From Eledone cirrhosa (taxonomy: Eukaryota): a stretch of DNA of 64,000 nt. The stretch is from assembly GCA_964016885.1 (NCBI GenBank), contig OZ024742.1, forward strand, positions 108,562,001 through 108,626,000, read 5' to 3'. Shown here one piece after another: positions 13,772 to 56,464 of this stretch. The number at the start of each line of letters is the position of its first letter. Position 1 is the stretch's first letter. Below the pieces are notes generated by a model. That model was not told the origin of the DNA. It made no database searches and saw nothing but the letters and a program-made list of their open reading frames with translations. A program made the translations under genes and the position numbers.

Positions 13772-13910
13772 AGTAATAATAATAAAATTGAAGACTAAAA
13801 TCCAAAGAGGGCTCGATAAGGAAAATATATTGACTTTGTTAGTTTCAGAAGATCCCGTTAAGGGTGAAAGCAGCGATTCTTTGCTTAAACTTTAATCTGT
13901 TATTTTAATA
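13772..13910 (+). mobile_element. Miniature PLE insertion (inverted pLTR piece + 3' end) of the family at 40220-42720
   Basis: 13772-13821 matches 42638-42689. 13828-13910 matches the reverse complement of 40220-40301. Flanked by (TA)n on both sides. Confidence 0.85.
13841..13891 (+). ncRNA. Type I hammerhead ribozyme variant (CAGAAGA core, CUU site)
   Basis: AGTTT-CAGAAGA-tCCCgttaaGGGt-GAAA-GCA(gcgattctt)TGC-TT-AAACT; all three stems pair. Confidence 0.7.
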
Positions 13911-13992
13911 TATATATATATATATATATATATATATATATATATATATATATATATATATATATATATATATATATATATATATATATATA

Positions 13993-16900
13993 CAGTATTT
14001 TCCGTTGTGTTGTAATATAAATATTACACACAGTAGATTATCAGCTCACGTAGAGTTTGCTCGACGGTTCCAGTTGTAGTTCCAAAAGTAATCCGGAGAA
14101 AAATAGAAAGGTTTGAATGGATACAGTTTAGTTGAAAGGAATTTATTGACACGTGTTTCTATAACAGTTACATAACCTAAAACAGCTGCTATCTACAAAC
14201 TTTTAGTTATGCAGACATTCAATATTTCAATGTTATTATTTACTGTCATTTCATCAGAATAATATTACTGAGGACCTATTTAGTTTTTATAGAGAATATT
14301 AGGAGGGAGGGGTGAAGTTGTTAGAAGAATAGTTGAAGGAGTGGTTTTTCGATAGCAGTGAGAATTCTTGGTGGCAGTGAGTAATTAGATTCCCATCTGT
14401 TGTTTTGACATTTTTTATAGAATATATTATTGGTTATTTTTCTAAATCTATAGAAGGATTAGAGATAGTAAAGATATGCGTGGTTGGTTTTGTGTTTGCA
14501 CTTAATTAACATTCAGACTTAAATTTTTCTTTCAAGTGTACGTATCCTTTCACCCACGCATTCACACACAAATATATTTGCACACCTCTACAAAATACAT
14601 ATACTCACAATTCACATATTCATACTTACATATATATACACATGCATACACATATATATACACACATGTATTCATGTACATACATACGCGCTCATGTGTA
14701 TACATTTTCATACTCAACTTATCTTTATATACACACGTATAGACACACACATATATACATACATACTCTAGTCCATGTGTACACACATACACATACATAC
14801 ACATCTATATACACATATATACATACATATATATATATATATATATATATATATATATTATATATATATATATATATATAAGCACTTTAATACATGAATA
14901 CACTTACATCTAACTATACACATCAAACATATATATATATTTACTTATTTATATACATTTTCACATATATATACATACTTATGGACGTTTTTAGACACAT
15001 TCATTATCGCATATTTGCACCTATTCTCATCAGCATATCTTTCCATTATTAGTGTGGTAATTTAAGGTTATTAATATATGTTGAGAAGAGATTGTTTTTA
15101 TATTTTTCTAACTAGATTAAGGTTTATATAGTTGGGGGATGTCCCTCTTTTATGTAATATTCGGCTTGTAGTGGGAAAAAAGGGTTTTAGTTCTGTGACG
15201 GCAGAATAATGTTCGTTCAATTCTGTTATTCAGCAGTTTCTTCTTGTGTGTGATTATGTAATAAATCTCAAGATTACACAATTTGCAGAAATTTTGGCTC
15301 CTGGAAAAGCTTTGGGTTTTAGCTAATTTCTCCCATTTTAGGGTAAACTTTTGATCGCTATCCCTGAGCGTCCAAGCTTTTTCTGCTAAAGTTGTTACAT
15401 TTCTTTGGCTCTGGTGTTTTATTGAGTAAGAATGCCTATACAATCGAGATTTAAACGATGTTGCCGTTGATCCCACGTAATACCACTCGTTGCCTCCGGA
15501 TTTAATAGTACACTTATAAATAATATTTTTTTCCAGGCAGTTATTGCCGAGGGGGCAGTTGTCAGGATAGGTGCAGTTACAGTTGTGTACGTTGGGTTTT
15601 CTCTGGAGTAGTATTGCGGACGAACTTAGGTGTGGTTTATTTATGTTCTGTAGTCTATTGTCTACTGTTTTTTTTGTGTTCTTTGTACTTAAGTTTTTAG
15701 TGTTTTCGTTTAACCTTCTAGTATTGATCTTTTTATGTGTTGTTCAAGGTTTAACGCTGTAGAGTATGACAGTCTTATAGTGGTAGGGTTTAGGATTTTG
15801 TGGTATTTGTGTGATGTAGGAAAATGTCTTTTAATTATTTTAAAGAAGAGTACTGGTAAATTTGTACTAATGGAACTATTGTATTCGGGGTTATACCATA
15901 AGTACTCTTTGCATCGCTTTCTATTAGTTTTGTTTGTTGGTTTACTGGTGTGCATACTATGGTAGTAAGTGTGGTTTGGTGTTGTGTTATTATATCTACC
16001 TATGTGGGATTTATTTTGGGTGTTTTGATTGTTCCCATCTATGTACTCTATTTTGTTGAGGTAGCCTGCTTTACTAAGGGCGTTATCGTAGTACTCGGCG
16101 TGTTCCTTAAATACTTGTATGTTAGAAGATAGACCCGAGATTCTAAGGGAAATATTTTTAGGGATAGATTTAATTATAGAGATGGGGTGGTTAGACCCAA
16201 CATTTACGTATTTGAGATTTTCATTCAATTTATGAAACGGTTTAATCAAACCAGAGTTTAAATTGAGTGTGACATCCAGGAAGTTAACTACTTTAAGGTT
16301 GTATTCGTATGTTATAGTTAGTCCTATTTCGAGTAGTAGTTTTCTTATATCTTTGCGTAGTTTTTCTAGTTTTTGGTTATTAAGGTTTTTAGCTAGGAGG
16401 AGAACATCGTCGCGGTATATTCCTCCGTGGAGATTGCTGAATTTTTCCTGGAGTCTAAAGGCGATAAATAACCCCACAATATCAGTTATTTCCGCCGAAT
16501 CGTTAGAGCCCATTGTTATGTCAAAGTTAGAGGGTCTATCTTTACGTACCCAATAACTGTTCTCAAATTTGACTATAGTTTTCCTAGCTTCTAATATAAT
16601 CTTAATTTCATCGTTTGTAAGGTCAGAGTTATCCTTAGCAAACTTAATGGCTCTATTCAAAGTTTCTGGTGATATCGATGAGTAATATTCATCGATATCA
16701 AACTGGATAAACTTAGATTTATTCTTATTGCTAATGCTATTAAACCATCTTATTGCTTCTTGGGTCTTCCCCCAGAGTTTAATGTTAACATTAGCCTTAA
16801 TTTGGGGGATGATTCTATCTAACATATATTTGCTTATTTTACCTATATCTGATTTAGAGGGGCAGATTAATCTAATTTTAGGGTCATTATCAAAGTTTAC

Positions 16901-17008
16901 CTTGTGGTCCTTAAGATTGAAGGTGGGTACCGCCGGTAAGAGTGGTCCTGTCCTATCTTCGATTCCGAGATTTTTCACTATTTCGCATGCCTCATCATTG
17001 ATGTGCTT
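13993..17008 (-). mobile_element. Naiad-like Penelope element, left arm of a palindrome (RT 15710-16978; GIY-YIG to 15150; one frameshift)
   Basis: LKDHK, RLICP, FDIDEYYSSI, MGSNDSAEI, IYRDD, FLDVTL; YVGST...SRLYRH, CKLC and CRHR C-terminus. Confidence 0.92.
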
Positions 17009-54982: not shown

Positions 54983-55078
54983 ACCCCTTAAGAAGCTCGG
55001 CTATTCAAATACCAGGATAAAAATTTTCATTTAGTCCAGAATTAGCCGTCGAAGCGGCTTGAGCTCAGCCGTCGGGGT
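54983..55078 (+). ncRNA. Degenerate type I hammerhead with long stems II and III (GUC site)
   Basis: ACCC-CTTAAGA-agctCGGCTATTC...GAATTAGCCGtc-GAAG-CGGCTtgagctcAGCCG-TC-GGGGT; sister copies at 34464 and 52388 retain GAAA. Confidence 0.62.
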
Positions 55079-55200
55079 CCTACTCTGTTCCTATTACCCA
55101 CTCTACTACCCTAAGTATTGAGTACTTTGGTGCGTTATGGTCCACCTGGTTCCTTACCACATTTCTTCCGTTATATATATATATATATATATATATATAT

Positions 55201-56245
55201 AAATTAATAAAAACAATGAATAAAAACAAAGAAACAGTTCCTTATATTAAAAAATTCATCATTTTACGATCGTTTCTAGGATATATATGTGTGTGTTGGT
55301 ACGTATATCATATAGATCTATGTAAAAATTTTACAAACTATCAGAGGGAATATACATACCTACATATATATATGCTGTCTTCAGAAATAATGATATTTGT
55401 TTATTGAAAAACACCAACAAAGATTTAATATAATAGGTCTGTTTGGGAACAGGTTTTGAATTGACCAATAGAAGACTAATAAGTGGTCAAGTTGATAGAA
55501 TAGTAGTAGTAGAAATTTAATTTAGGGGTAGAGGAATGCAGACTTCAGTTTTGAATGGAAATAATACTTTGAATGAAAAGATTACTTTGGGGATGAAAAG
55601 AGGTCAAGCCGGTGAAAGGTACACGAAAATCTGATGTTATTAAAGAATAATGCTAATGTTAAAATCGAAGGAGAATAAAATTTTAGGATAAATGTGTTAA
55701 TGATAAATACCAATCTTATTAAAAACATAAGGAATTTAGATCTATAAAAAGAAATTAAATTAATTTAATTGATAGGTATACTTATAGGGATAAATTTATA
55801 TTAATTCATATGGATGTGATAAATAAGAGTTATATGTTATTAAAGAATGTTGTTAAAAACGAAGGAAAGAAAATTTTTTTGGGGGGGGGGGATAAATGTA
55901 TTAGTGAGAAATAATAAACTTATATAGACTACAAGGAATTTAGATTCATAACAGGAAATTAAAATAGTTTATATGTATTAATTTTAGGAAAAGATAGCTG
56001 TAAAAGGGAAATAAAATTATGAAGTTCTCAGTAGTAAAATACTAATTATAGGTTAACTAAATTTAAAAAAAACAATTATAATAATTTGTAAAATAAAAGT
56101 GTATATTAATTAGGTTTATAATATTTGAAAGTTTTTCTAATTCTATGATTGCACGATATAATTAATTCTTTTCGTGATATTTGGATTACATTGAGTTCTT
56201 CATACGGATTTGACACTACCGTATATTTTGGTAGATTTATCTACA
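55201..56245 (-). mobile_element. Probable 3' end and long AT-rich UTR of another Naiad-like PLE
   Basis: Minus strand near 56130-56170 reads KRINISCNHRIRKLSN (CxH end motif). Internal ~204-bp duplication (55686/55890). HHR near the 3' end. (TA)n flanks. Confidence 0.45.
55257..55392 (-). ncRNA. Type I hammerhead ribozyme with a ~100-nt stem II domain (GUA site)
   Basis: CATTATTT-CTGAAGA-[~100 nt closed by ATATATATGT/ACATATATAT]-GAAA-CGATCG-TA-AAATGATG; 8-bp stem I. Confidence 0.72.
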
Positions 56246-56464
56246 TATATATATATATATAGGAAAATGTATAGGAAAATATAGGAAAATGTTTAACCCC
56301 GACGGCAGAGCTCCAGCCGTTTAGACGGCTATTTCTGGACGTTATGGTCCATTTGGTTCCTTACCACACTTCATACGTTATATATATATATATATACATA
56401 AATACATACACACATATGAATATATTTATGCCTGCATACATACATGCGTGCATATATACATAGA

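Follow-up and report, generated by a model that had tools for sequence, protein, structure and literature searches.

The window analysed here is the whole 64-kb stretch from 108,562,001 to 108,626,000 on the forward strand of contig OZ024742.1 of Eledone cirrhosa (assembly GCA_964016885.1, 3.0 Gb). It contains 42 merged (TA)n tracts and is a pile of Penelope-like element (PLE) ends lodged in them. Most of its hammerhead ribozyme motifs are ends of Hydra-like or Neptune-like PLEs, or belong to an ordinary retrozyme, and are thus known biology: hammerheads in PLE ends, U3-A8 variants, action as dimers, a preference for (TA)n and the dependence of retrozymes on PLEs are all published already. The present analysis centres on two non-coding tandem families, of 633 bp and about 533 bp, in which the blocks of the hammerhead are permuted. 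With a probability that we put at roughly 0.7, these families carry a covarying hammerhead in the order cleavage site, GAAA, CUGAnGA, which is likely self-cleaving and was likely inherited from Naiad-type elements.

The 633-bp element occupies 19272..20975 on the minus strand and comprises about 2.5 head-to-tail units and an inverted 135-bp 5' piece. It is flanked by (TA)n on both sides, and its best copies genome-wide are 97-100% identical. Three permuted hammerheads were located on its minus strand, at 19291..19396 (C3 at 19303, predicted cut after the A at 19347), 19924..20031 (predicted cut after 19980) and 20557..20664 (predicted cut after 20613). In a fourth copy, on the plus strand of the inverted piece at 20838..20910, the 5' strand contributing to stem II is missing. 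The family of about 533 bp is represented by a 5'-truncated copy at 28697..28993 on the minus strand, with 89-92% identity among copies. Its permuted hammerhead, at 28722..28829 on the same strand, shows one mismatch each in stems I and III, and both mismatches are absent from most copies of the family. The 633-bp and 533-bp units exhibit GC contents of 0.44 and 0.45, and their longest ATG open reading frames (ORFs) encode 98 and 117 amino acids, respectively. Non-LTR retrozymes are defined by type I hammerheads and are described as non-coding tandem units with one hammerhead each and a GC content below 50%, likely being non-autonomous PLE derivatives (Cervera and de la Pena 2020, PMC7229834; Li et al. 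preprint 10.64898/2026.07.22.740005). The two families resemble them in being tandem and non-coding, but their units do not carry one type I hammerhead each, the permuted order being present in its place. The sequence-only reading, an earlier annotation of this DNA, had taken the motifs at 19292 and 28724 for ordinary hammerheads, an assignment that their block order contradicts.

At both loci the cleavage-site block (S) comes first, followed by the GAAA block (G) and the CUGAnGA block (C), with GAAA upstream of CUGAUGA. The layout of the strands was derived by comparing the two families for compensated helices. From 5' to 3', it comprises a closing strand, a hairpin, a 4-nt strand, a 6-nt interaction strand, 3 nt, the 3' strand of stem III, the UH site, a stem I strand, 5 nt, a stem II strand, GAAA, the 5' strand of stem III, 6 nt, the interaction partner, the stem I partner, CUGAnGA, one base and the closing partner. 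The predicted UH cut site is AUA in the 633-bp family and AUC in the 533-bp family. The 633-bp unit contains a single CUGAnGA, and the 73 nt after it hold no GAAA. By eye, neither 19292 nor 28724 fitted a type I, II or III hammerhead or an HDV, twister or pistol ribozyme, and the covarying helices match the permuted order alone.

The descriptor of the permuted motif, which was written once the motif had been seen, gave 4 matches in the window, whereas 60 shuffles averaged 0.05. It missed the copy at 28724, which was recovered by a profile search (E 3e-28). Genome-wide, exact patterns of the 3' half of the core gave 678 matches, with a pattern built so as to exclude both window families, and 244 matches with a second variant, that is, at least 922 further matches, and both controls gave 0. 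From 62 loci, 55 distinct copies were kept by a loose filter that required two 5' words; these overlap distal stem II and a portion of stem III, and neither stem I nor the interaction helix. Of these, 35 were aligned, redundant and 5'-truncated copies having been dropped. In this alignment 91.7% of the cells are paired, a value as high as which was reached in none of 500 shuffles (slid controls gave 29-47%), and two-sided changes are observed in 18 of 34 pairs; the closing helix is displaced by one base in the eight rows that represent the 533-bp family. A second alignment spans two divergent groups, with 17 copies made up of 9 of the 35 and 8 of the 20 second-group loci. Here, 88.8% of the cells are paired, the covariation value is 0.705 versus 0.268, and two-sided changes occur in 17 of 22 pairs, a count reached by 9 of 500 shuffles. 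These changes affect five of six pairs in stem I, five of six in the interaction helix and four of five in stem III. The kinship of the rows inflates the pair counts; the changes nevertheless recur across several subfamilies.

With regard to the core, CUGAnGA is present in all 35 copies, GAAA in 33 and a non-G residue at position 17 in all 35; the 3'-half core belonged to the selection pattern, whereas H17 did not. The mean column identity across groups is 60%. A k-turn signature at the sequence level, consisting of a 3-nt bulge and tandem G.A/A.G pairs between helices, is found in 24 of the 35 rows of the first alignment and 13 of the 17 of the second and spans the 3-nt and 6-nt linkers joining stem III to the interaction helix. 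One of 55 pattern matches in metagenomes (record L179, 860-975) exhibits every helix with other letters, together with the k-turn signature and the hairpin. This fold sits 3' of an unrelated 176-amino-acid ORF with a hydrophobic stretch, and the record shows no sign of a PLE. The helices were absent from the other 54 metagenome matches, and none of three viral contigs contained the full permuted fold. On this evidence the fold is very probably real, and we consider it likely, judging from the sequences, that the ribozyme is active.

Ribozymes of types SGC and CSG cleave in vitro, and a single SGC motif suffices for a construct to be cut during transcription (Eckert et al. 2023, PMC10085705). 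In the available parts of that paper, the examples come from metatranscriptomes and metagenomes and none from genomes of known organisms, save one GCS candidate, and type CSG is recorded from merely two metagenome sequences. The window motif has several features in common with type SGC, namely the S-G-C order, the full core, covarying stems I and III, a short linker between stems I and II, and a helix uniting the distal ends of these stems. In contrast to the SGC examples described there, it resides in an animal genome at high copy number, and its distal stem II and one interaction strand are donated from the 5' side, which splits block C, assumed to be unbroken in PMC10085705. An additional closing helix with a hairpin and the k-turn signature are further differences. 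In type SGC, a stem II strand directly follows CUGAnGA; here, only the 10.1-11.1 pair is formed at that place, the remainder of stem II being provided by the 5' strand. The window motif would therefore work like type SGC and yet is, by its sequence, a further variant. A reshuffled hammerhead order had previously been reported solely outside animal genomes, and here it is present in two mobile animal families. Our literature search, whose coverage excluded most subscription journals, turned up nothing on permuted hammerheads, whether from animals or from Naiads.

Naiads are reported, in the available parts of Craig et al. (2021, PMC8557442), to be without canonical hammerheads, bearing only 'core' and 'half core' flags (8 of the latter), to prefer (TA)n and, in cephalopods, to have long been inactive. 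Reading the supplement of that paper by eye, we recognised an S-G-C fold with a 5'-donated stem II in the 3' untranslated regions of 8 of 54 Naiad records: three near-identical ones from Acropora, two from Octopus, one from Eulimnadia and two unnamed, one of which has a 2-bp stem I. The Eulimnadia record additionally exhibits the closing helix and the hairpin, and in the two Octopus records the ribozyme fold at the 3' end, the hairpin loop and the linker spacing are the same as in the window. One more record has the S-G-C order with a different stem II, and a clean type CSG was seen in four records, two of which are from Nippostrongylus by file order. These counts cover the listed places of three core words; they are not exhaustive, words split by line ends are missed, and some names were assigned by file order. 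Naiads share with the window families the preference for (TA)n and the tandem and inverted insertions, but unlike Naiads the window families are non-coding. Slightly less firmly than the activity of the window motif, we favour a broader reading of these sequences, in which the Naiad clade and the non-coding retrozymes derived from it would use active reversed-cycle hammerheads (SGC, CSG and a new form opened after A9, with 5'-donated stem II and a k-turn). Animal genomes would thereby hold their first non-circularly permuted ribozymes, in thousands of copies, and the apparent lack of hammerheads in Naiads would be explained; cutting may require strand-swapped pairs of tandem units. As a separate observation, decayed Naiad-like reverse transcriptase (RT) remnants are present in the Eledone genome (L083-L101), with about 70-77% mutual likeness and stops or frameshifts in each.

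The block order, the conserved core, the covarying helices, the tandem arrays, the fixed 3' ends, the 5' truncation and the inversion are directly seen. First-look candidates genome-wide, which are not copy numbers, amount to 2852 for the 633-bp unit and 1150 for the 533-bp unit. Among 38 short terminal matches of the 633-bp unit, 35 stop at one base, in an AU-rich patch running into (TA)n, and the 5' ends of the copies are truncated or inverted. A (TA)5+ tract lies at most 150 nt downstream of the core at 31 of 50 loci, compared with 44 of 150 control positions. A 7.2-kb array (L102:1079-8275) contains 12 intact motifs, with variants common to units 2 and 4 and to units 5 and 9.

Hammerhead numbering and the priming model used here are general knowledge. 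We propose that the tandem arrays are transcribed and that the motif would then cut at the UH site, giving unit-length RNA. Stem III and the interaction helix would form one duplex, bent by the k-turn, and the core could close in two ways, within a knotted monomer or between neighbouring units that swap strands, the latter being somewhat favoured by the geometry. The RT/endonuclease of a young Hydra-like or Neptune-like element would nick (TA)n and prime on the TA-like patch 20-80 nt past the core. The cut site lies inside the insertions, which points to an uncut multimer or a circle as the probable template. Every insertion would leave (TA)n at its ends, which would allow later insertions to stack. 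For the 633-bp family, young Hydra-like or Neptune-like proteins are our best guess as helper.

Several observations weigh against this interpretation. The k-turn signature is missing from the 533-bp family, and block C is linked to stem II by one pair, 10.1-11.1 (28 of 35 copies), so the fold departs from the assayed type SGC. Nested folding, which cannot represent pseudoknots, assigns stem I and the 5'-donated helix a probability of at most 0.01 and gives competing hairpins. The alignment rows are related, and were chosen by a 3'-half pattern and then filtered. Sequence comparison ties the 633-bp unit to no helper element. A single rolling-circle pass as the source of the 12-copy array is not supported, as the variants common to non-adjacent units speak against it and make a mixed multimer template or a later duplication likelier. 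With regard to Naiads, an exact peptide-motif search of this genome gave 0 matches with one pattern and 12 with another, 11 of which are Naiad-like and all of which have broken frames, and a ribozyme was recognisable 3' of none of the seven decayed Naiad loci examined. The link to Naiads therefore rests on the published records inspected by eye.

A rival reading is a fold that is real and non-catalytic, serving as a binding or template signal for PLE proteins or as a protective 3' knot, the core letters being relics. Two abundant type I families with fixed core changes, described below, indicate that PLE ends can spread despite damaged cores, and PLE hammerheads are published as cleaving poorly in vitro. 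However, the catalytic positions and the non-G at position 17 are kept across groups, at a mean column identity of only 60%, as well as in L179 and in Naiad records of three phyla, which makes a catalytically inert fold improbable. Closer to an even chance, although still somewhat below it, is activity solely through assembly across units or molecules, with block C and distal stem II supplied by one unit and blocks S and G by another and without a knotted monomer. On each strand a linker, of 3 nt on one and 6 nt on the other, connects stem III with the interaction helix, and in Naiad_EuTe the two helices are nearly continuous, a geometry that would be hard to close within one molecule; dimers are, moreover, the presumed active form of animal PLE hammerheads. 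In contrast, helices are bent to an angle of about 50 degrees at a k-turn (PMC4316175), which could close the monomer, and the SGC constructs of PMC10085705 cut as single motifs. Such assembly is a variant of the self-cleaving hammerhead that we favour, not an alternative to catalysis. As for the source of the proteins, the young 633-bp family might still be moved by an intact Naiad that was missed: its ribozyme is of Naiad type, Naiads prefer (TA)n (PMC8557442), and divergent members can escape exact peptide-motif patterns. The broken frames of all pattern matches, the long inactivity described for cephalopod Naiads in that paper and the young Hydra-like and Neptune-like copies in the window make this unlikely. 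Satellite DNA spread by duplication at the DNA level, without an RNA step, would account for the variants common to units 2 and 4 and to units 5 and 9 of one array, but it is very improbable: the loci are scattered over many contigs, share a single fixed 3' end, differ in their 5' truncation and have inverted 5' pieces at (TA)n, all of which are hallmarks of target-primed reverse transcription.

If self-cleaving hammerheads of Naiad origin are indeed at work here, the view of Naiads thriving without hammerheads would be overturned, and the ribozyme would become near-universal in endonuclease-bearing PLEs, with a role that can be tested. Non-circular RNA permutations would no longer be confined to anonymous environmental contigs but would occur in animal genomes, where the host element is known, and a permutation beyond the six-block scheme would be added. 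Invertebrate ribozymes and retrozymes have probably been undercounted, as standard descriptors and Rfam miss the motif. Cross-clade mobilisation would also have a clear example in a young parasite that bears a ribozyme and has outlived the clade from which it arose.

The other hammerheads of the window are of known type. A structure-based descriptor of type I gave 11 matches scoring at least 10 (13841, 28121, 28470, 29866, 33649, 34081, 34823, 39963, 40239, 53786 and 54334), compared with a mean of 0.1 and a maximum of 1 in 40 block shuffles, so the motifs noticed in the sequence-only reading are real. A match at 46671, with a score of 8 and 2.9 kb from TA, was discarded as chance. The proximity to (TA)n also stands: of 23 curated motif positions, 20 have a (TA)6+ tract no more than 250 nt away, versus 30.5% of background positions. 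All 17 coordinates given in that reading were inspected individually: 11 are the type I matches above, 19292 and 28724 are not type I, and the others are variant, mutated or incomplete. At 33196, a variant with a low score (U3-A8, C13) is shared as a fixed trait by its family, and 54983 belongs, as a mutated copy, to a family of type I hammerheads with a long stem II. By eye, the core at 19087 is perfect and stems II and III are present, but an adjacent stem I is lacking, and 55257 is the 3' half of a hammerhead only. The estimate of about a dozen families is sound, as about 11 are solid, in addition to 19087 (without stem I), 52702/52746 (decayed) and 55257 (half). A palindromic stem III, attributed to many motifs, is present at 29866, 33196, 33649 and 53786 and absent from the remaining ones. 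That nearly every short block is a fold-back was overstated: an internal repeat of at least 30 bp occurs in 7 of the 29 blocks of up to 1 kb, a count that misses fold-backs spanning several blocks, and a whole or half motif in 14; among all 39 blocks, 15 have a repeat and 20 a motif. An Rfam scan of the window gave 145 matches at E up to 5, none of which is to a hammerhead family.

Autonomous PLEs and non-coding hammerhead tandem families do co-occur in the window, as had been proposed, and end at (TA)n with a common PLE-type anatomy (fixed 3' end, 5' truncation, inverted 5' piece). The single shared machinery proposed with it does not hold, as at least four Hydra-like families and one Neptune-like family each encode their own RT/endonuclease, and several of the claimed families are merely truncated 3' ends of autonomous PLEs. 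ORFs and tblastn identified three Hydra-like Penelope elements (A, B and C) and one Neptune-like family, and a further Hydra-like family, D, was identified through coding sequence adjoining its copies elsewhere in the genome. A Pfam scan returned only RVT_1 and zf-CCHC and was of no use for clade assignment.

PLE A (14103..19248) has two inverted arms that are 99.5% identical, with hammerhead-like cores without a good stem I at 14257 (minus strand) and 19094 (plus strand). PLE B (40220..42720, minus strand) encodes an RT, a CxCx5C linker and a GIY-YIG domain and has a fold-back 5' end; its type I hammerhead at 40239-40289 is a U4A variant. Its frame holds DKT, and an upstream RWR (RWK-like) was read by eye. 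A short remnant of PLE B at 13773..13907 on the plus strand comprises an inverted piece and the 3' end, with a hammerhead at 13841-13891. PLE C (28991..29935, plus strand) is 5'-truncated and retains the endonuclease and a type I hammerhead at 29866-29903. The 3' end of PLE D at 54940..55172 on the plus strand carries a type I hammerhead with a long stem II, and shorter ends lie at 34464-34617, 52332-52540 and 56262-56396. The Neptune-like family is represented at 25601..28336 on the plus strand, with a minimal type I hammerhead at 28121-28163, and at 34674..40151, where two inverted arms are 99% identical and hammerheads lie at 34823-34865 (minus strand) and 39963-40005 (plus strand). The 99% identity of inverted arms indicates that these PLE families are young. 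An older Neptune-like copy, about 93% identical to the young ones, is present at 57698-59386.

The Hydra-like elements exhibit the RT followed by a C-terminal GIY-YIG domain and the insertion at (TA)n, with the CxCx5C linker in PLE A and PLE B. The Neptune-like family exhibits, from motifs alone, a CX2-5CxxC linker and a CCHH-type C-terminal GIY-YIG domain in the ORF at 38070-39758. The available parts of the publications on Hydra and Neptune PLEs (Cervera and de la Pena 2014, PMC4209133; Craig 2021) likewise describe a C-terminal GIY-YIG domain, a hammerhead in the terminal repeats, a bulged base after A9, a palindromic stem III, the U3-A8 variant and (TA)n targets; the family-wide U4A and A13C cores of the window were not found described in these parts. 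The PLE B-type core CAGAAGA, with A for the conserved U4, is present in 94 of 100 matches listed, and there are 20133 matches genome-wide. The spread of PLE B, with at least 20133 copies bearing A at U4, is a natural test of the need for cleavage in PLE mobility. The U3-A8 core with C13 is found in 99 of 100 matches listed, with 4016 exact matches genome-wide. The window copies of this latter family are a fold-back at 32971..33343, with motifs at 33121-33156 (minus strand) and 33197-33232 (plus strand), and a further copy with a motif at 52101-52137 (block 52047-52261). In the PLE D family the core is mostly U3-A8 and reads UUGAGAA in 7 of 10 loci.

A 428-bp non-coding tandem element with an inverted tip lies at 33437..34462 on the minus strand. 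Its type I hammerheads, at 33648-33690 and 34080-34122, carry one core mutation each, and the core of the family is intact in 25 of 31 listed rows, in which overlapping loci repeat some copies. The unit has a GC content of 0.37 and a longest ATG ORF of 53 amino acids, and at the DNA level the family has the features of an ordinary non-LTR retrozyme. On the minus strand, 28469..28518 is a canonical type I hammerhead with an 8-bp stem I and a GUC site, 53785..53827 has a palindromic stem III and lies in a block weakly similar to the 428-bp family, and 54334..54375 has a 2-bp stem II and lies within an inverted-end element (54204-54658). By eye, the fold-back at 52548..52935 contains two decayed hammerhead-like motifs (52702, minus strand; 52746, plus strand), and an AT-rich block at 55202..56244 on the minus strand shows, near 55257-55290, no more than a hammerhead's 3' half.

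In the fold-backs at 30574-30710, 43664-43840, 51284-52024 and 52936-53653 no hammerhead was recognisable, one of them being a mirrored microsatellite block; such motif-free fold-backs are probably inverted 5' pieces from other PLE-type insertions. The fragment at 61039-61953, which has no match in Pfam, resembles the C-terminal zinc knuckle and restriction-like endonuclease of a non-LTR element. At the other end of the window, positions 1-7823 hold two broken RT elements of the long interspersed nuclear element (LINE) type, one of which has an endonuclease-like frame and a zinc-knuckle ORF1.

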